Shown here: positions 2,882-50,792 of the stretch, piece by piece
How positions within the stretch are numbered: the stretch's first letter is position 1
Layout of the letters: each line of letters begins with the position of its first letter
DNA from: Chitinophagaceae bacterium
GTDB lineage: Bacteria > Bacteroidota > Bacteroidia > Chitinophagales > Chitinophagaceae
DNA length: 64,000 nucleotides
Assembly (NCBI GenBank): GCA_016708765.1
Contig: JADJFD010000001.1
Coordinates: 179,626 to 243,625 of the forward strand
Direction of reading: 5' to 3'
The notes under the pieces: model-generated
What the model was told of the DNA's origin: nothing
Databases searched by the model: none
What the model saw: only the letters and a program-made list of their open reading frames with translations
Position numbers and translations under genes: made by a program

Positions 2882-2905
2882 CCGCTCCGTGTTGTGGCGA
2901 AGCGG
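2882..2905 (+). promoter_or_regulatory. Imperfect hairpin in the fecR-susC spacer
   Basis: ccgctccg-tgttgtgg-cgaagcgg; arms pair with one mismatch. Function inferred only from position. Confidence 0.35.
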
Positions 2906-2971
2906 CGATGTTTGGTAACGATTAACAAAACGGTTAGGAATCATTTTTCAATCACTAAACTTTGCAAAGCT

Positions 2972-5900
2972 ATGCAATTAACTGCTATTGCCCGTTCACT
3001 TAGCTGTACTAACGGACTAACATCCCGCCTAGGCCGGGACAAAATTAAATTCTGGAAGGTTATGAGATTAACAGCCATCTTATTGACTTTTGCTTGTCTG
3101 CAGGTTGCAGCTAGTGGTACAGGACAAACTGTAACATTAAAAGTAAAGAATGCACCCATGAAAGAGGTGTTCAGGGAGATTCAAAAACAAACCGGACTTA
3201 ATGTACTGGTAGATGAAGCCTTGTTGGAAAAAGTAGGTAAAGTAACATTGGATGTGCGTAATATGCCAGTTTCTCATGTCCTTAATATCTGTTTGAAGGA
3301 TGAACCAGTTAGCTATACGATTATGGATGGTAGAATAGTGGTAAAACCTTCCTCAACAGGGAAGTTTCAATCGCCAATCATTTCCACTACTAATCCTCAA
3401 GAACCTCTGGCTGCAATCCCTATAAAAGGAAGAGTAACTGACAAAGATGGTAATCCGTTGGAAGGGGCCAATGTAAAAGTGAAAGGCAGTAAAACTGGTA
3501 CTACAACTGATAACCAGGGTAGGTTTACAATAAATGTCAACGAAGGCGATATTCTTGTGGTTAGTTATATTGGGTTTTCTGAATTCACTCTCTCAGTAAC
3601 GGCTGCTGCAATTAATAGTGCAGAAGGCTTTTCAGTAAGATTGAACCCTGCTCAAACCGTTTTGGACGAAACGGTGATAAAAGGGTATTACAAATCTAGC
3701 AGGAAGGCGAGTACAGGATCTATAGCCACTATCTCTGCTGATAAAATTGGGAATCAGCCAGTAGCTGATCCAATTTCAAGTATTCAAGGAAGAGCATCCG
3801 GAGTTATGGTAACCTCTTCAAGTGGTATGCCGGGCTCAAGTTTTCAAGTACGAATAAGGGGTGAGAATTCTATGAGTAATGGAAACGAACCTTTATATGT
3901 TGTTGATGGAGTTCCATTTATTTTTCCTACTGTGCTTAATCAATTTACCGGTGCAAATGGAAACCAGAGTCCATTAAATAGCATTAATCCGGGGGATATA
4001 GAAAGAATAGATATATTGAAAGATGCAGATGCAACAGCTATTTATGGATCCAGAGGTGCAAATGGCGTAATACTTATAACTACAAAAAGAGGAACAGCAG
4101 CAGAGAGTCAGATTGCCGTGAATATTTATACAGGCACACGTCATGTTGGAAATAAGCTTGACTTTATGAATACTCAGCAATACCTTGAAATGAGGAAAGA
4201 AGGATTTCTGAATGATGCTGCAACTATGACTCTTACAAATGCTCCTGACTTATTGCTTTGGGATCAGAATGCCTATACTGACTGGCAGGATTTACTGATG
4301 GGAAATACTGCGAACGTTACACAGGCTCAGGTTTCGTTTTCTGGCGGTAATGCGCAAACGAAATTTTTGATAACGGGAGCAGTTAATAAAGAAAGTACTG
4401 TATTGTTAGGTGATTTTGGATATACACGGGGAAGTACTCACTTTAGCATTGACCATACGTCTAAAAACGGAAAGTTTGGGTTAACCACTTCCATAAATTT
4501 CGCTACTGATAAAAACGATATTGTTCCCACAGATGTCTCACAATATTTTGGCTTGCCTCCAAATTTTCCGGTCTATAATCCGGATGGGTCTTTATACTGG
4601 TATGGAAGTACACAGAATCCGGTAGCATATCTAAATAGGACATATGAAACACAAACCAATAATCTGATTGGCAATAATACGCTGAGATATGTAATATTAC
4701 CGGGACTGACAGCAAGGGCAAATCTGGGTTATACATTAACCACAATGAAACAATTACAGACGTTACCAGCAAGCGGTTTCACTAATATCAGTCCTGTTCC
4801 GGGAAGTACCGCCCAATATGGTAATTCTGATGTGAATTCTTATATCATTGAACCGCAACTCGATTACACAAAATGGTTAGGTCCTGGGAAATTAAGTTTA
4901 TTGGCTGGAGGCAGTTGGCAGTAAACAATACAGGAAGGTAATTATTTCTTGGGAGCTGGATATTCAAGCGATGCACTTTTAAAAAACAGAGCTGCAGCCA
5001 CTTCTTTAACATTAAGGAACTACAATTATTCCGAATATAAATATCAGGCAGTTTACGGTCGGATCAACTATGACATCAAATCTAAGTACATTCTCAATTT
5101 GACTTTCAGGAGAGATGGTTCTTCTCGTTTTGGCGAGGGTAATAAATTTGGAAATTTTGGTGCAGTAGGCGGTGCATGGGTTTTTTCGGATGAAAAATTT
5201 GTTGAGAATAACTTGTCATTCTTGAGCCTCGGTAAATTAAGGGCTAGTTATGGAATTACAGGGAATGATCAGATAGGGGATTACCAGTATCTTGATAGTT
5301 GGTCATCCAGCACATTCCCTTATGGCGGACAAAGTGGTCTGAGTCCTGCGAGAGCTTTTAACCCTAATTTCAGTTGGGAAACTAATAGGAAATTGGATAT
5401 TTCTCTGGAGCTAGGATTTTTAAAAGATAGGGTGTCGTTAATTACCAGTTATTATAATAACCGTTCAGATGATCAGCTCGTCGGTCAAACACTTTCTCCT
5501 CAATCTGGATTTAGTTCCTATACTTCAAATTTCCCTGCTTTGGTTGAAAATAAAGGATTGGAATTTGATTTGAATACACAAAATATTAAAAAGAAAAATT
5601 TTACCTGGAATACTGCATTCAATATTTCCTTCCCGGGTAATAAACTGTTACGCTATGATAACCTAGCAAGTTCGGGTGATGCTTCCGGTTATGAAGTTGG
5701 TAAAAGTACCAGAATTATAAAAGGGTTTAAATTCACCGGAGTAAATCCGAATACAGGAGTTCCCGAATTCCTGGATGTAAATAGGGACGGACTTATCAAT
5801 TCGGCGGGTGACTGGGTGGTTTTGGGTCAAACCTTGCCGAAGTTCTTTGGCGGGTTATCAAATGAATTCAAGTATAAAAATCTAAGCCTTGATATATTTT

Positions 5901-6393: not shown

Positions 6394-7791
6394 ATGAATT
6401 TTATGAAACATATTATTATTTATATTTTCTTTTTTGCTGGATTTCTTTTCTTAGGAAGTTGCAAAAAATATGTTGAAGTGGATCCTCCACGGACTTCACT
6501 CAGCGATGAACTTGTTTTCACTGATGATAAAACGGCAGAATCTTCGTTGACCGGTTTATACAGTACTATGAACAGTTACTCTTCTTCGTTTGCCAATACG
6601 CAGGCCAATTTTTATCCATCTATGAGTGCTGATGATTTTCATGTGGCTACTGCTAACACTACTTCAGATGAATTCAAAGAAAATGGGCTAACTATCGGTA
6701 ACAGTGTTGTTTCGGGTTTATGGTCACAGCCATATTCACTGATTTATCATGCGAATGCAGTGATCGAAGGATTAAATAAATCTACAACTGTTTCACTTGC
6801 AAAATCTACACAATTGATGGGTGAAGCGAAGTTTCTTCGGGCCTTTTTTTACTTTCACCTGGTGAATTATTTTGGCGATGTACCATTAATAACTAATACT
6901 GACTTTCTAATTAATACATCATTGCCAAGAACAAAAGCCGATCTCGTATATGATGCAATTATACAGGATTTACTAGATGCACAGGCAGCTTTAAGCGATA
7001 ATTATCCGCAGTCCGAACGCATAAGAGCAAACAAAGGAGCAGCTACTGCATTACTGGCAAGGGTTTATTTGTATAGGAGCCAGTGGGATAAAGCAGAAAC
7101 CGAATCTGCTAAAGTGATTGATGATGCAAAATATGTTTTACAGACAAACATCAATAATGTCTTTCTCAGAACAAGTACAGAAGCAATCTGGCAATTGCAG
7201 GCCATTAATACTTCTACAGCAGGACCTATCAATACATGGGAAGGCTATTCGATTATACCTATCAACGCTACCACAGCCCCGGGTTACGTTATGTACCCGA
7301 ATTTTATCTCATCTTTTGAATCACTTACAGACAAGAGATACCTGAACTGGCTGAAAGCTTATACCCCTGCGGTAGGACCAATTGTATTTTATCCGTTTAA
7401 ATATAAAGTGAGAACGGGGACTGTTACAGAATATTCAATGGTACTCCGTAAGGCAGAGCAATACTTGATCCGTGCAGAAGCAAGAGCACAACTCAACAAT
7501 CTATCCGGTGCCAAATCGGATATTGATGAAATAAGAATTAGAGCCGGTCTTCCTATACTTGGTGCAGGCCTTACTAAAGATCAAATTTTATTAGCCGTTG
7601 AAAAAGAAAGAAAACTAGAATTGTTTAGTGAGTGGGGCCACCGGTGGTTCGACCTCAAAAGAACGGGCCGAGTAGTAACCGTTCTTGGTGCTTTCAAAAC
7701 AGCAGTTTCTACAGATGATCAATTATACCCGATCCCATTGAATGCAACTCTCACAAACAATAATTTGGTACAAAATCCTGGATATTTTTAA
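6394..7791 (+). CDS. RagB/SusD-family lipoprotein
   Basis: Lipobox LGSC, EAKFLRAFFYFHLVNYFGDVPL, YLIRAEARAQ, ERKLELFSEWGHRWFDLKRTG, C-terminal LVQNPGY. Confidence 0.95.
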   Translation: MNFMKHIIIYIFFFAGFLFLGSCKKYVEVDPPRTSLSDELVFTDDKTAESSLTGLYSTMNSYSSSFANTQANFYPSMSADDFHVATANTTSDEFKENGLTIGNSVVSGLWSQPYSLIYHANAVIEGLNKSTTVSLAKSTQLMGEAKFLRAFFYFHLVNYFGDVPLITNTDFLINTSLPRTKADLVYDAIIQDLLDAQAALSDNYPQSERIRANKGAATALLARVYLYRSQWDKAETESAKVIDDAKYVLQTNINNVFLRTSTEAIWQLQAINTSTAGPINTWEGYSIIPINATTAPGYVMYPNFISSFESLTDKRYLNWLKAYTPAVGPIVFYPFKYKVRTGTVTEYSMVLRKAEQYLIRAEARAQLNNLSGAKSDIDEIRIRAGLPILGAGLTKDQILLAVEKERKLELFSEWGHRWFDLKRTGRVVTVLGAFKTAVSTDDQLYPIPLNATLTNNNLVQNPGYF

Positions 7792-7809
7792 CCTGTCAAA
7801 AAAATTACA

Positions 7810-9768
7810 ATGCTGAAATTTGATAAACAGGTAACATCCTGTTTTACCCAATCGCTTTCACAATATTTATTCTTTACAATGTTTTTCCTTACATCTGTAT
7901 GTGGAATAGCGCAACAGGTGAAAATAAAGCCTGAATTTCCAAAGAGGGGTGAGGTTGTTACCATTTACTTTACTCCGGCCTTAACAGTTAAAGAGGATAC
8001 AACTCAAATCAATGAAAAGGATACAGCTGTAACTATCGTATTCACCTATTCAAATTTTTATAATGTTCCATATCGCCTTCCTATGGAGAAAAAAGGGAAT
8101 CATTGGGAAGCTTCTTTTTTACTGGAACGTTATGCAACCTATGCAACTTTTACTTTAGAAAGTGGAACGAAAATACAGTTACCTAAGAAGATGAAACATT
8201 ATGAAGTAGCGGTATTTAATAAAGACAATAGAGTAAAAAGTGGTTATTTGTATGAATCTTATAGCTTGTCTGCACAAATGGGGAAGGACTCCGCAGTTCC
8301 TGATCTGCAATTGGCATTGTTACAAAAGGAATTGGAAATCTATCCAGATAATTATGAGGCCAAGGTTAGGTTACTTCATAATAAAATGAATCGTACGACT
8401 GGTGACGAGAAAGAAAAATACAGAATTCAGGCGTTGAATGTAATTGCGGCCAATTTTTATAAAAAACCAGGAGATCCTGGTTTAAGGGATAAAACAACAA
8501 TGGGGTATTTGATCATTGGTGAAAAAACTAGGGTCGATTCTATTCATAAAGTGATCAGGGATAAATATCCGAATACAGATGCCGGTTATGATATGCAGGT
8601 GTCGGAAATACAGCGTTTGGATGACAAAAAGGAAAGAAAAAATAAAGCAGAGTCGTTGTTGAAGAAAACGCCGTCGGCAAAAGCAAAATTCATTAATGAA
8701 CTCCACGAAACATTAATGCAATATTATGTTGAAGCGAAAAATTTGAAGAAGGCCTTATATCATCTTAATCTGATTAAAACAGATACGACTCCTTATCGTG
8801 GACCGACTTTATTAAAACATGCACTGTTATTTTTAAATAATGGGATGCTTTTGGATACGGCATTGGTCTATACAGAAAAAGCTTTTGGTTTAGCAGAAAG
8901 CTTTCCTGCAGGACTAATCCGCTATTGGCCCGAAACAGGTTATGTACTTCCTTATGTATCTCCCTCTGTTAAAATGCAGGTAGTACAAACGGCACGGGCA
9001 AATTCCCTTTCATTGAAAGCACTCATTCTCCATAAAAAAGGCGACAGGCAAAAAGCCGGAGAAAATCTTAGTCGGGCACTTGCTTTATCCTCTGATCCGA
9101 AAACATTGGCCAATGCGGCCGTCTATTACCGTCTTGAAGGCAAATATGAAGATGCGTACCATCTAACTAAAAAATTGGTAATGGACGGGCAAGAAGATAC
9201 AGCGGCACAACGCCACATGCAGGAAGATTATACCAAATGGAAAAAAAGTACCGATGGGTGGGAAAAAGAAATGAAAGATGTGACGGATCATTGGAGAACG
9301 GTAATAATGATTGGATTGAAGAAAGAACGTATCAATAAGAAACTTCCTGTAATGGAGAGATTGGTAAATATCAAGGGAGAGCCGGTTCCTGCTTCAGCAA
9401 TGGTAGGAAAAGTAGTTGTGATTGATTTTTGGGCTACCTGGTGTGTTCCTTGTATGAAGGAGATGCCATATTTACAGGCTGTTTATAACCGTTATAAAGA
9501 TAATCCAAAAGTGCTTTTCATGGTTGTTAACAGCGGGTCTGGGAATACGTTGCAAGATGCACAGGGATGGAAAGGGAATAAAACATATTCTTTTCCTGTT
9601 TATTATACCGATGAAAAATTGTTAGGAGAAAGGTTTGGATTTAATGTAATCCCTTCCACTTTTATTGTTTCGCCTTCGGGATATATTCAATTCCGCAATA
9701 TAGGTTTTGAAGGGCCGGCAATTGAGTATAAATTGTCTACTGCTATTGATTTGTTATTGTCGGAATAA
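7810..9768 (+). CDS. TlpA/redoxin-domain protein with long helical (TPR-like) N-terminal region
   Basis: C-terminal GKVVVIDFWATWCVPCMKEMP thioredoxin-like motif; signal-peptide-like N-terminus. Confidence 0.85.
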   Translation: MLKFDKQVTSCFTQSLSQYLFFTMFFLTSVCGIAQQVKIKPEFPKRGEVVTIYFTPALTVKEDTTQINEKDTAVTIVFTYSNFYNVPYRLPMEKKGNHWEASFLLERYATYATFTLESGTKIQLPKKMKHYEVAVFNKDNRVKSGYLYESYSLSAQMGKDSAVPDLQLALLQKELEIYPDNYEAKVRLLHNKMNRTTGDEKEKYRIQALNVIAANFYKKPGDPGLRDKTTMGYLIIGEKTRVDSIHKVIRDKYPNTDAGYDMQVSEIQRLDDKKERKNKAESLLKKTPSAKAKFINELHETLMQYYVEAKNLKKALYHLNLIKTDTTPYRGPTLLKHALLFLNNGMLLDTALVYTEKAFGLAESFPAGLIRYWPETGYVLPYVSPSVKMQVVQTARANSLSLKALILHKKGDRQKAGENLSRALALSSDPKTLANAAVYYRLEGKYEDAYHLTKKLVMDGQEDTAAQRHMQEDYTKWKKSTDGWEKEMKDVTDHWRTVIMIGLKKERINKKLPVMERLVNIKGEPVPASAMVGKVVVIDFWATWCVPCMKEMPYLQAVYNRYKDNPKVLFMVVNSGSGNTLQDAQGWKGNKTYSFPVYYTDEKLLGERFGFNVIPSTFIVSPSGYIQFRNIGFEGPAIEYKLSTAIDLLLSE

Positions 9769-47572: not shown

Positions 47573-47686
47573 TTTTACTTTTTAAGTAATATTTCCAATT
47601 TTGGAATACTGTGCGTTTGAATTTGGGCAGTAGCAATCGGCTCAAAGGTAAAGTTTTCCAGCTAATCAATTTTAATCCGAATTTTC

Positions 47687-49351
47687 CTAGTTCTTTAGTA
47701 TAAATTTCCGTAGAAAGTTTAATGCGTTGGCGGCTGTCATCTCAATATTCCGTTGCCTGTCAAAGCGAAGATGTAAAACAGTTGTTTCCACTTTATTCTT
47801 ATCAGCTACAGCGATCCAAACGGTTCCAACTGGTTTATCTTCAGTTCCTCCTTCCGGCCCCATAATACCTGAAACAGCAACAACATAATCTACATTCAAA
47901 GTTTTTATGGCACCTTTTGCCATTTCAGTAACCGTTTCTTCACTAACGGCACCGGTTTTTTCCAATGTTTCTTTTTTTACACCAAGAATATTTTCTTTTG
48001 TTTCATATGAGTAGCTCACTACTGAGCCATTATAGTATATTGATGAACCAGGAATTGCTGTGATCAGATGAGCAATATAACCACCAGTACAACTTTCAGC
48101 GGTTCCCATAGTCTTGCCTTTTGCTTTCTTCATCATCTTTTCAAAAAGAGGCAGCAATTCTTTTTCAACTTCTTCCTTATTATTACCTGTTGTTGTCAAT
48201 CTTAGTTTTACCATACCATAATTTGGCAAGTATGCAAGTTTAATATGCGATGGTAGAGAAGGTTCAAATTCTTTCAGCATTTCTGCCAACATAGATTCGC
48301 CAATACCGGCAGTGAAAGCAGTTTTATGAACGATGGCAGGCAAATCATATTCCTTAAGAATAAATGGAATTACTTCATCCATCATTAATCCTTTCATTTC
48401 GTGGGGAACGCCGGGTAGGGAAATAAATACAGGCCCAGCCTCCCCAAACCCCTCCGCAGGAGGGGCTTCAGAGTCTGATATTTCAGGCTTTTCTTTTTTT
48501 AATTCGAGAAGGATAGTGTTTATTGTATAATCGGTTTCAGATAATACCTGTTTGTTGGTGAAACGAATGACATTAAAGCCAAGCATGTTTAATTCTTTCG
48601 TTCGTTCGTCATCACTTTTTTTATTTTCCGGGAGCTGATGATGCAGTCCATCAACTTCAATAATTAGTTTTTCTGAAAGAGAAACAAAATCAGCAATATA
48701 AGTTGAAATAATATGTTGTCTTCTAAACTTAAAACCAGCCATTTTTTTTCCTTTCACAATTTCCCATAATAGCTTTTCAGCATCAGTAGACTTACTTCGA
48801 TGCTCCTTTACAAAATCTTTTAGCAAGCCATATACAAATGGATCTGCTCTTAAGTAAGCTTTAGTGTTAAATGCACTTTCGGATTCCAAATCCCCCCTGC
48901 GGGGGGTGGGGGGGCTGAACAACATCCCCGGTGCCGTACCTCTTTTATTATGTAAAACTGTACACACATCCGGTACTTCAGCCTGCTTCATATTTCTTTC
49001 CAGCATTGGACCGCTACGACGAAATACGTTTTCAAATAAATATTTTACATGAGCCAGCACTTTCTCATTCACTATCATCTTACCGCCAAAATATTTGCAA
49101 AGAAGTGGTTTGGTAATATCATCTGCCGTAGGGCCTAATCCACCAGTAATAATAATGATGTCTGAGTTTTCTCCTTCTTCATCCAATGCCTGCCATATAT
49201 CATCATACACATCACCCACAGCAACTCTTCTTCTTACCCACACACCAATTTTATTGAGTTCCTGTGCAATAAAAGCAGAGTTGGTGTCAATTGTTTGGCC
49301 AATCAATAATTCATCACCAATGGTGATGATAGAAGCATTAACATTATTCAT
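47687..49351 (-). CDS. cinA: CinA-family protein (MoCF/COG1058 domain + PncC domain) with in-frame DUF559 insertion
   Basis: ITIGDELLIGQTIDTN, ITGGLGPTADDIT, GTAPGM, SLPGVPHEM, TAESCTGG, AVSGIMGPEGG, VGTVWIA. Confidence 0.93.
   Translation of the reverse strand: MNNVNASIITIGDELLIGQTIDTNSAFIAQELNKIGVWVRRRVAVGDVYDDIWQALDEEGENSDIIIITGGLGPTADDITKPLLCKYFGGKMIVNEKVLAHVKYLFENVFRRSGPMLERNMKQAEVPDVCTVLHNKRGTAPGMLFSPPTPRRGDLESESAFNTKAYLRADPFVYGLLKDFVKEHRSKSTDAEKLLWEIVKGKKMAGFKFRRQHIISTYIADFVSLSEKLIIEVDGLHHQLPENKKSDDERTKELNMLGFNVIRFTNKQVLSETDYTINTILLELKKEKPEISDSEAPPAEGFGEAGPVFISLPGVPHEMKGLMMDEVIPFILKEYDLPAIVHKTAFTAGIGESMLAEMLKEFEPSLPSHIKLAYLPNYGMVKLRLTTTGNNKEEVEKELLPLFEKMMKKAKGKTMGTAESCTGGYIAHLITAIPGSSIYYNGSVVSYSYETKENILGVKKETLEKTGAVSEETVTEMAKGAIKTLNVDYVVAVSGIMGPEGGTEDKPVGTVWIAVADKNKVETTVLHLRFDRQRNIEMTAANALNFLRKFILKN
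48431..48916 (-). mobile_element. 162-codon in-frame insertion: DUF559/Vsr-like endonuclease domain bounded by inverted GC-rich hairpin repeats
   Basis: STDAEKLLW, FRRQHII..YIADF, LIIEVDGLHH, DDERTKEL...GFNVIRFTN. Left end cagcctccccaaacccctcc-gca-ggagggg; right end cccccc-tgc-ggggggtgggggggctg. Confidence 0.85.
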
Positions 49352-49379
49352 AGATCAAAATTCGGAGCAAAGGTAAGAG

Positions 49380-50792
49380 TTGGTTAAATTTGACAGATTA
49401 ATGTTTAAGTCTATGAAGAAAATAATTCTTGTTTTTTGTACGGTATTTTTCGTTTCAGTTTCTTTTAGTCAGTCAGTTTCTCAAAACCTACAAAAAGCCT
49501 GGCAACAGTTTGAAAGCGACAGCCAGTTAAAACATGCCATCAGTTCCTTGTATGTTATTGATGCTAAAACAGGTGAGGTTGTGTTTGATAAAAACTCTCA
49601 GATTGGTTTGGCGCCGGCATCTACTCAGAAAATTATTACTGCCGCTACTGCTTTTGAGTTGTTGGGGAAAGATTATAGGTATAAAACGGAACTGGGAATA
49701 CTGAAAGGGGAAAAAGAAAACTCTGTGTACTTGAAACCTTCTGGGGATCCTACATTTGGTAGTTGGAGATGGAATTCAACAAAAGAACAATTCATACTTG
49801 ATGGGATAATTAAGACCTATAAACCTGTTATTGAAAGTACTAATTCGACAGTTTATGTAAATCAAAAAGGATGGGATAGGCAAAACATTCCAGACGGTTG
49901 GATTTGGCAGGATATTGGAAATTATTATGGAGCAGGCGCAGGTTTAATCAACTGGAGAGAAAACCAATATGACTTGATTCTAAAATCAGGTTCCAAAATT
50001 GGAGATAATGTGGAAGTGGTTAAAACAATTCCTGATTTATATTCTTATGAAATCAATTCATATGCTACTTCTGCTAAAGCTGGCTCTGGGGATAATGCCT
50101 ATATATATCTTCCTGCTTCAGAAAATGGCGGAGTTGTAAGAGGAACTATTCCTGTAAATGAAAATAAGTTTGAGATTTCTGGAGCTATGCCTTATCCAGC
50201 TAATCAATTTGTTGAGACACTTCGGGATACATTGTTTGGGAGAGATAAACCCTATAATCACATAGCTACACTGTTTAGCGATGAGTTTAAAAGTAAGCCA
50301 GAGATTTTGTACACCCACTATTCTCCATCCCTCGACTCCATCACTTATTGGTTCCTCAAAAAAAGCATTAACCTCTACGGCGAAGCATTACTAAAAACAT
50401 TTGCTTACGAAAAAAACGGTTTTGGCAGTACCGATGGCGGCGTAAAAATTGTAAAAGACTTTTGGAAACAAAAAGGTATTGATGAGGATGAATTAAACAT
50501 CAGCGATGGTTCTGGTTTATCGCCACAAAATAGAACAACGACTCATGCACAGGTGGAGGTTTTAAAATATGCAAAGGGAAAAGACTGGTACCCGTATTAT
50601 CTCAAAGGGTTCCCTGATTACAATGGCATGAAAATGAAAAGCGGTACTATAAAAGATGTAAAAGGCTTTTGCGGTTATCACAAAGCAAAAGATGGCAAAG
50701 AGTATATCTTTTCTTTTTTGGTAAATAATTACAATGGCAAAACTTCTGGAGTGGTAAGTAAGATGTATAAGGTGCTGGATGAGTTGAAGTGA
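49380..50792 (+). CDS. dacB: D-alanyl-D-alanine carboxypeptidase/endopeptidase PBP4 (S13)
   Basis: PASTQK (SxxK), SGDPTFG, SINLY (SxN), DGSGLS, MKSG. Confidence 0.92.
   Translation: MVKFDRLMFKSMKKIILVFCTVFFVSVSFSQSVSQNLQKAWQQFESDSQLKHAISSLYVIDAKTGEVVFDKNSQIGLAPASTQKIITAATAFELLGKDYRYKTELGILKGEKENSVYLKPSGDPTFGSWRWNSTKEQFILDGIIKTYKPVIESTNSTVYVNQKGWDRQNIPDGWIWQDIGNYYGAGAGLINWRENQYDLILKSGSKIGDNVEVVKTIPDLYSYEINSYATSAKAGSGDNAYIYLPASENGGVVRGTIPVNENKFEISGAMPYPANQFVETLRDTLFGRDKPYNHIATLFSDEFKSKPEILYTHYSPSLDSITYWFLKKSINLYGEALLKTFAYEKNGFGSTDGGVKIVKDFWKQKGIDEDELNISDGSGLSPQNRTTTHAQVEVLKYAKGKDWYPYYLKGFPDYNGMKMKSGTIKDVKGFCGYHKAKDGKEYIFSFLVNNYNGKTSGVVSKMYKVLDELK

Follow-up and report, generated by a model that had tools for sequence, protein, structure and literature searches.

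How a complete nuclease domain comes to lie within the reading frame of a conserved enzyme, and how it persists there, is the question raised by the cinA gene of a Chitinophagaceae bacterium (GenBank assembly GCA_016708765.1). The gene is part of a 64,000-nt stretch of contig JADJFD010000001.1 (positions 179,626–243,625), hereafter the window, and is interrupted in frame by an insert that encodes a DUF559 nuclease between two GC-rich, hairpin-bearing arms. As judged from sequence comparisons, a composite selfish element of this build, a palindromic stop-free carrier plus DUF559, is widespread in unrelated genes and has nuclease-free derivatives. The insert is probably one copy of a selfish mobile cassette family of the Bacteroidota, in which a homing-type nuclease is housed in the carrier. 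The original prediction, made from the window alone, had proposed a small selfish element of a nuclease plus palindromic ends and had named three findings that would speak against it (a vertically inherited CinA-DUF559 fusion with congruent phylogeny, DUF559 genes elsewhere without such flanks, and junctions not spanned by reads); each of these tests came out in favour of a selfish element.

The host gene (47687–49351, reverse strand) was assigned to the CinA/PncC-type nicotinamide mononucleotide deamidase family from its open reading frame (ORF), Pfam and NCBIfam cinA models and synteny, the neighbourhood in relatives being Peptidase_S13, cinA and 2-oxoacid dehydrogenase E2. The 554-aa product has MoCF_biosynth (residues 8–124), CinA_KH (343–408) and CinA/PncC (409–550) domains in Pfam. 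Alignment to uninterrupted, or empty, alleles places the insert at 48431–48916 (reverse strand, residues 146–307), directly between the host beta-strands GTAPGMLF (48917–48940, reverse strand; residues 138–145, with a strand at 142–145 in the AlphaFold2 (AF2) model) and VFISLPGVP (48404–48430, reverse strand; residues 308–316, with a strand at 308–312). The predicted 162 codons in frame between these motifs proved to be the exact count and, as had also been claimed, the ORF reads through the insert without a start or stop of its own. Empty alleles have five residues at this position, mostly KRDGK or KKDGK, and the empty site sequence includes ATGCTATTTAAAAAGGACGGAAAAGTTTTCATC; the junction peptides of the window fusion are GMLFSPPTPR... 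and ...GFGEAGPVFISLPGVPHEMK. Both junctions are crossed by independent public activated-sludge and wastewater assemblies, and an activated-sludge contig of 22.3 kb with a depth of ~1000 matches 47600–49450 without mismatch except for a 66-nt indel elsewhere in cinA.

That indel concerns the window allele itself, which lacks 66 nt (22 aa, SIVKEYLVSDEDEGLEKVIGKIL) at 48128–48130, around residue 408 at the border of the KH and PncC domains. The segment is kept in 13 of 13 aligned relatives, including a protein 99% identical to the window from a metagenome-assembled genome (MAG), and in contigs from all four public DNA runs that cover the region. The window allele may be impaired, or the deletion may belong to the assembly; no record matches the window CinA protein exactly, which is probably due to the missing 22 residues.

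The domain within the insert was predicted to be a complete DUF559-type nuclease and was recovered as such by profile search, with Pfam PF04480 matching over positions 4–108 of 109 (E = 5e-32; 110–114 bits against a cut-off of 20.6) between the MoCF_biosynth and CinA_KH/CinA domains. The NCBIfam DUF559 model also matches (E = 8e-17), yet under its equivalog cut-off. Together with a PDB match and Foldseek, these searches delimit a nuclease (48500–48856, reverse strand) consisting of an N-terminal helix (YLRADP..Y.LLK) and the DUF559 core (residues 178–284, 48500–48820), with the motifs T.AE..LW, FRRQH, ADF, IEVDG..H, D.ERT and VIRFTN. The solved DUF559 structure 3hrl is matched both by sequence (E = 1.7e-17) and in Foldseek (E = 1.6e-7; template modelling score (target) 0.86; root-mean-square deviation 2.1 Å), and second after it in Foldseek comes the homing endonuclease I-Bth0305I (3r3p; E = 2e-4, probability 1.0), with AbaSI and Vsr as weaker matches. 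By its predicted fold, the closest characterised structural relative of the nuclease is this homing endonuclease. The T, E, D-F, E-x-D-G and H residues are invariant in 65 embedded homologues, and ADF, IEVDG and H also in 37 mostly free-standing ones; the window motif I-E-V-D-G-L-H-H corresponds to E-x-D-G-x-H.

Ratios of non-synonymous to synonymous substitution rates (dN/dS) of 0.09–0.18 for the nuclease and 0.03–0.10 for the host part of filled alleles indicate that both are under purifying selection; the nuclease looks functional and the host appears to tolerate it. In AF2 models the nuclease is folded on its own (predicted local distance difference test (pLDDT) 67–94 over the models, 67–88 for the window nuclease) and emerges between the two host beta-strands, while the arm-encoded segments are disordered (pLDDT <50 at residues 148–169 and 289–305). 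The 35–40 insert residues outside the nuclease form low-complexity Pro/Gly linkers.

A domain held in this manner might be removed before the mature protein is formed, either as an unrecognised intron, with the arms pairing to loop out the insert in the RNA, or as a non-canonical intein. Like an intein, the insert lies in frame in a conserved host protein and lacks a start and a stop. Pairing of the two ends in RNA or single-stranded DNA would be possible, since the outer C run on one side complements the outer G run on the other. Removal is nonetheless very improbable given that dozens of hosts keep an open frame across both junctions, something that splicing would not demand, that an RNA-run contig crosses the 48916/48917 junction unspliced, and that no Rfam match was found on 48200–49150 at permissive thresholds. 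Further, Pfam recognises DUF559 and a weak MTES_1575 in the insert and no Hint domain. The first insert residue varies (S, G, R or K) and the insert ends in ...GA, GP or EA before V, I or L, with no Cys/Ser/Thr nucleophile after it and no His-Asn at its end. Pfam also found no HUH Y1 transposase in the insert, other genes of the window and loci not having been scanned for it, and the prediction that the insert would have neither such an enzyme nor splicing motifs stands.

The distribution of the insert among cinA alleles bears on whether the fusion is an inherited feature of CinA. The 120 closest CinA proteins all come from MAGs of Chitinophagaceae or Sphingobacteriales; 114 could be split at the flanking motifs, the window included, and comprised 31 filled (572–604 aa) and 83 empty (about 420 aa) alleles. 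On the host-part tree, filled and empty alleles are intermixed, with at least 15 parsimony changes, and the nearest filled/empty pairs have host identities of 95–97%. Host and insert identities are almost uncorrelated (Spearman 0.23), such that hosts 93% identical carry inserts merely 52–54% identical, and in two pairs the synonymous divergence (dS) of the nuclease is lower than that of the host. The nuclease tree, from which a frameshifted cinA fragment labelled as a free protein (P0002) was left out, is discordant with the host tree as well; none of 100 bootstraps recovers the cinA nucleases as monophyletic, 89 of the 100 unite clade II, a second cinA clade, with an adenine-deaminase insert, and a third representative from cinA branches elsewhere. 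On this topology the cinA site is occupied by more than one nuclease lineage. The SpoIIE inserts mostly cluster together, and such partial clustering by host implies that lineages tend to stay at a site and occasionally change genes.

A domesticated fusion, in which CinA gained the nuclease domain once, passed it on vertically and now uses it in CinA function, is therefore barely credible. It would account for the many intact full-length CinA-DUF559 proteins of 572–604 aa and for the purifying selection on the host part, but not for the scatter of filled among empty alleles, the disagreement between insert and host histories, the presence of the same cassette in ~90 unrelated host families, or the existence of footprint alleles and broken copies. 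The comparison of alleles and of nuclease and host phylogenies thus came out as the original prediction had expected, with empty sites interspersed among relatives and inheritance that is not vertical.

How a cassette reaches an empty cinA is indicated by L003 (filled) and L002 (empty), the sole true empty/filled DNA pair compared, in which a 480-nt element of L003 stands in place of 18 nt (KKDGKV) of L002. The two are 99.9% identical over 700 nt beyond +121 downstream of the site and have a few mismatches upstream, yet differ at 32 positions in the 134 nt right after the insert (24% divergence). This foreign tract resembles the flanks of other filled alleles, while the five closest empty alleles share the native tract, and across the alleles the flanking Trp of GMWF occurs in 18 of 30 filled and 3 of 88 empty ones. 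The pattern in L003 is taken to mean that the cassette was gained through homologous recombination, the flanks being co-converted, and on this evidence the cassette has been acquired horizontally at cinA. The locus has both presence/absence polymorphism among close relatives and flank co-conversion, as is expected of homing.

Other changes were noted at the same gene. L003 has a Uma2-family (PF05685) gene at 955–1482, between the Peptidase_S13 gene and cinA, that is absent from the near-identical L002 and coincides with divergence in the 5' end of cinA. The footprint alleles L097 and L098 are collapsed C-run/G-run remnants. Decayed copies include P0001, 99% identical to the window, with a deletion and a frameshift in the C-terminus of the nuclease, and the syntenic L001 (GCA_964275145.1; 10785–10834), in which cinA is broken into two ORFs by a 1-nt insertion; internal deletions affect the metH copy of L004.

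Beyond cinA, the insert has its closest relatives within MetH, UDP-GlcNAc 2-epimerase, LeuRS and RecG, with flanks that are Pro-rich and then Gly-rich. An exhaustive search of 1.84 billion cluster representatives returned 18,878 DUF559 relatives, and among the best 150 of these, 65 are proteins of at least 300 aa (embedded), with the domain internal in most. The other domains of the embedded set belong to at least 91 Pfam families, and the hosts include class I tRNA synthetases, SpoIIE phosphatases, family 2 glycosyltransferases, DegT aminotransferases, adenine deaminase, SpoIID and helicases. The DNA of the wecB, recG, metH and metRS copies follows one order (outer C run, C-stem/loop/G-stem, nuclease, C-stem/loop/G-stem, outer G run), the leuRS copy has the same ends as the cinA cassette, and a 1434-aa MetH ORF is intact around its cassette. 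The same hairpin flanks had been predicted for DUF559 genes in unrelated hosts, and they extend even to free-standing DUF559 genes with their own ATG and stop, in which both arms are still present outside the ORF. The arms must therefore matter at the nucleic-acid level and not as linkers only.

Several of these loci have further peculiarities. One 919-aa methionyl-tRNA synthetase ORF (L086) holds two DUF559 cassettes (~1716–2193 and 2899–3429), with a complete miniature element directly upstream of the second. Five DUF559 proteins or partial gene calls of 123–192 aa (P0010, P0011, P0014, P0024 and P0068) are named '5-methyltetrahydrofolate--homocysteine methyltransferase' in one source, probably through annotation transfer or fragmented gene calls from MetH with an embedded DUF559; P0068 is apparently free-standing and P0014 is a fragment of an embedded MetH copy. 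P0083 has three tandem copies of a 20-aa arm-like module (STPLPFGEGSGGEASRSALH) before its DUF559 domain, showing that arm modules can amplify in tandem.

The arms themselves were predicted to be GC-rich inverted hairpins with stems of 6–7 bp, which is what the window contains. Arm A, on the C-terminal side of the insert (48437–48483; positions 1–47 of the miniature-element profile described below), has an outer run AGCCTCCCC, a spacer AAA, a hairpin and the subterminal CTTCAGAGTCTGA, and is translated as ...SDSEAPPAEGFGEA. Its inverted copy, arm B on the N-terminal side (48860–48916; profile positions 47–106), has the subterminal TTTCGGATTCCAAAT, a hairpin and the outer run TGGGGGGGCT, and is translated as SPPTPRRGDLESES. 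The hairpins are CCCCTCC-gca-GGAGGGG in arm A (48449–48465; 7-bp stem, 3-nt loop, DNA fold −9.5 kcal/mol, z −2.0) and CCCCCC-tgc-GGGGGG in arm B (48892–48906; 6-bp stem, 3-nt loop), and they continue outward as inverted copies (CAGCCTCCCC.../...GGGGGGGCTG). The arms are GC islands (60–72% GC against 36% in the window) and no other hairpins or islands of this kind occur in the 64 kb; a degenerate arm pattern has two matches in the window where 0.00 are expected (100 shuffles).

The arms belong to a larger repeat family. In metagenome contigs the 32-nt core of arm A (48437–48468) reaches a depth of 460 and has many unrelated flanks, against a depth of ~12 for the sequence around it. When one genome per species was scanned for the exact pattern, 68 arm copies turned up in 66 loci, nearly all in Bacteroidota and with up to nine loci per MAG; 18 of the copies are in paired, nuclease-free palindromic elements of 106–192 nt and the other 50 are solo. 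Among the paired elements, 15 of 18 span 106–140 nt and a length of 106 nt recurs eight times. Just under half of the copies (32 of 68) lie in reading frames with 60 or more open codons on each side and are presumably translated, reading mostly ASPNPSAGGA in one orientation and A/TPPAEGF/LGEA in the other, and the GC-rich core is stop-free in all six frames. The 106-nt elements are colinear with both ends of the window cassette, including the subterminal bases. A profile of the miniature element, or carrier, built without the window sequence matches the window at arm A (E = 6e-13) and arm B (E = 6e-7), the portion of the insert that fits it being 48437–48916 (480 nt), and matches both ends of nearly all other DUF559 loci colinearly. 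With one half of the profile at each end of the cassette, the nuclease sits in the centre of a miniature element.

One site in adenine deaminase occurs in three states, as a full cassette (P0241), a miniature element (L038) and a solo arm (L066), and full, miniature or solo, and empty states are found at the same site in two host genes, the second being cinA with its footprints L097 and L098. The arm modules are of at least three sequence types, occur in stacks of up to three and are swapped between nucleases that are closely related. Terminal inverted repeats that are multicopy and common to nuclease-bearing and nuclease-free copies are those of MITEs (miniature transposable elements with inverted repeats), and no recognised transposase (DDE, HUH, serine or tyrosine) was found between the arms, where DUF559 is the only ORF. 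The picture of a nuclease with its palindromic ends therefore stands as to the presence of the ends but not as to their being private to the nuclease. That the arms are a multicopy Bacteroidota repeat with nuclease-free forms is the main addition to the first account.

Some members of the repeat family differ from this scheme. A metagenome contig of run X3 joins 48468 to 48889, lacking 420 nt, so that arm A is followed by arm B with no nuclease; it probably represents either a miniature element without nuclease at some other place or a deletion variant. In L016 (~7610–7830), L041 and L053, an arm pair SLPNPSAGGA ... GPLAGGGGA surrounds a ~55-aa non-DUF559 segment (SAVQWNGKLPLDEVKDVRKIAKAISIAE...) that could be another cargo or a nuclease remnant. 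A few exact arm matches are in contigs labelled Clostridia, Anaerolineae or Burkholderiales (L045, L065 and L037); L045 and L065, both GC-rich variants, may be chance matches, and the near-identity of L037 to the Chitinophagaceae locus L068 suggests a mis-binned contig.

A family with these ends could also be a terminal-inverted-repeat transposon, in which DUF559 recognises the arms and cuts at the ends of the element, in the manner of TnsA in Tn7 or of RAYT at REP sequences (see below), host repair inserts the element at new sites and the 106-nt forms are MITEs mobilised in trans. Inverted arms that are constant whatever the host gene, even in free-standing copies needing no linker, would fit this, as would the large number of copies per genome that have the same pair of ends but no nuclease (e.g., nine loci in one MAG), the very broad range of target genes and the stacking and exchange of arm modules. 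This explanation is unlikely in view of the target sites, since no duplication was found at cinA, where 18 nt were replaced in the L003/L002 pair, and none is evident in the flanks of 14 miniature elements. Further, a hydrolytic PD-(D/E)XK domain of ~110 aa has no known strand-transfer activity, the nucleases partly cluster by host site, as site-resident lineages would, and the documented gain at cinA went via homologous recombination with flanking host DNA.

Alternatively, the nuclease may be passive or self-serving cargo on a carrier that is moved by an unlinked enzyme, replication slippage or recombination, and may persist through post-segregational addiction, protection against loss of the element, or a repair or defence function useful to the host. 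The arms mostly lack a nuclease nearby, their types are swapped among closely related nucleases, and the same arms can enclose the different ~55-aa segment of L016, L041 and L053, all of which this would explain. It is improbable, however, that mere cargo would be intact, under purifying selection and always at the centre of the carrier in dozens of independent hosts; the loci examined show no further conserved gene linked to the arms, and the closest characterised relative of the nuclease is a homing endonuclease.

The preferred reading, a homing-type selfish cassette, can be set out as follows. At its centre, a palindromic, GC-rich miniature element of ~106 nt carries a nuclease gene of ~125 aa (DUF559, a Vsr-like PD-(D/E)XK nuclease); the arms of the element, ~50 nt apiece, are made up of an outer run of C or G, a short hairpin of G and C, and ~15 subterminal bases. 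As the arms are stop-free and read as disordered Pro/Gly linkers, the cassette can sit in frame in a surface loop, which in CinA is a beta-hairpin turn where the cassette replaces KKDGK. The nuclease would then be made as an extra domain of the host protein, with no removal at the RNA or protein level. It may break a nuclease-free target, either an empty allele or a nuclease-free miniature element, and recombinational repair from the filled copy would install the cassette, which is homing as with endonuclease genes in introns and inteins. New genes might be reached occasionally via the miniature carrier, and decay by internal deletion would leave the miniature, solo and footprint forms.

Several observations weigh against homing by this route. 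Only 2 of the 68 arm copies adjoin DUF559, and there are ~4 nucleases per at least 81 arms in 448 kb, a rarity that implies that something else could mobilise the carrier. The pristine empty cinA has no carrier, and allelic homing would therefore need recognition of cinA itself, which fits poorly with similar nucleases (~50–60% identity) in ~90 host families. What the co-conversion tract proves is that recombination took place with a foreign allele, and not that the nuclease made a break, and none of 15 filled loci was the donor of the L003 tract, the best candidate having an insert 87% identical. Broken copies exist (P0001, L001 and L004). DNA cleavage by the domain is putative, as is its cut site, and the RNA support is a single 151-nt contig that may be DNA carry-over. 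Additionally, the fold energy of the hairpins is not better than that of composition-matched shuffles (z −2.0 to 0.0), and hairpin stability was dropped as evidence; what is non-random in the arms is their sequence family and placement, not their thermodynamics. Homing-type spread fits the data at least as well as a hairpin-acting, REP/RAYT-like nuclease. A more specific version is put forward tentatively, namely that DUF559 plus the stop-free GC-hairpin element gives homing endonuclease genes a third safe haven in addition to self-splicing introns and inteins, harmless through translation as an extra domain on flexible surface-loop linkers rather than through splicing, with the homodimer-friendly palindromic carrier, and not the host gene, as the possible target of the nuclease.

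Elements related to the cassette in one respect or another have been described. The EDxHD, or I-Bth0305I, family comprises Vsr-like homing endonucleases (Dassa et al. 2009, PMC2677866; for I-Bth0305I, Taylor et al. 2011, as cited in PMC9403480) and has been grouped with VSR/DUF559 (PMC3424549). The cassette shares with it the fold superfamily and the habit of a selfish nuclease inside conserved genes, with polymorphism and a co-conversion tract at cinA. Members of that family are found in group I introns, inteins and 'fractured genes', mostly of phage, and are spliced out, whereas the cassette evidently stays in the host protein, appears to be DUF559 proper (E-x-D-G..H, not EDxHD) and is carried by inverted GC-hairpin arms. 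Inteins with a homing endonuclease are likewise in frame in housekeeping proteins, expressed via the host gene and built as a nuclease nested in a tolerable carrier, but the cassette has no Hint domain or junction nucleophile and apparently owes its neutrality to flexible surface-loop linkers and not to excision.

Palindromic repeats fused in frame in ORFs are known as Rickettsia palindromic elements (RPEs; Ogata 2000, as reviewed in PMC3184786) and as the QMITEs of Coxiella, which are MITEs (PMC5896051). Like the 106-nt forms, they are multicopy palindromes of ~100 nt that are in frame and read as extra peptide loops. The present family differs in being from Bacteroidota, GC-rich in AT-rich genomes and stop-free in six frames in its core, and in having one version that carries a nuclease gene, which is not reported for RPEs or QMITEs in the cited sources. 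Repetitive extragenic palindromic sequences and their REP-associated tyrosine transposases (REP/RAYT, or REPIN) also combine short GC-rich multicopy palindromes with a rare associated DNA-cutting enzyme, here a putative one, but RAYT is an HUH Y1 transposase that is single-copy and free-standing and not a repeat-flanked mobile unit in ORFs, and REPs are extragenic. The GC clusters and double-hairpin elements of fungal mitochondria are GC-rich palindromic mobile elements in AT-rich genomes, sometimes in coding regions and sometimes bordering mobile endonuclease ORFs; they are organellar and unrelated in sequence to the cassette arms, and none is known to have an embedded DUF559 nuclease. TnsA of Tn7 is a precedent for a restriction-endonuclease-fold protein that cuts transposon ends (PMC3424549), but it acts together with the DDE transposase TnsB and makes target duplications, and the cassette shows neither a partner gene nor a duplication. 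In-frame palindromic repeats and Vsr-like homing endonucleases in introns or inteins are thus already known, while the literature searched, which does not extend to subscription-only papers, yielded no account of DUF559 cassettes inserted in frame or of the present GC-hairpin repeat. There is a substantial chance that the cassette represents a distinct strategy for selfish nucleases.

If the cassette family is what it appears to be, selfish nuclease genes can persist in essential genes without splicing machinery, which would change how genomes are scanned for mobile elements. It would also explain long or oddly annotated Bacteroidota proteins, such as tRNA synthetases, MetH, CinA and SpoIIE phosphatases with a central 'DUF559', as well as small DUF559 genes mislabelled as methionine synthase, and would give a testable role to DUF559, a large family of unknown function. 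The cassettes offer natural examples of tolerated domain insertion sites and linkers and, if the nuclease targets the palindromic carrier, would provide a compact site-specific nuclease with a portable target. Should the third-safe-haven proposal be true, the family would be a self-contained mobile system without a known transposase that has colonised hundreds of housekeeping genes of the Bacteroidota.

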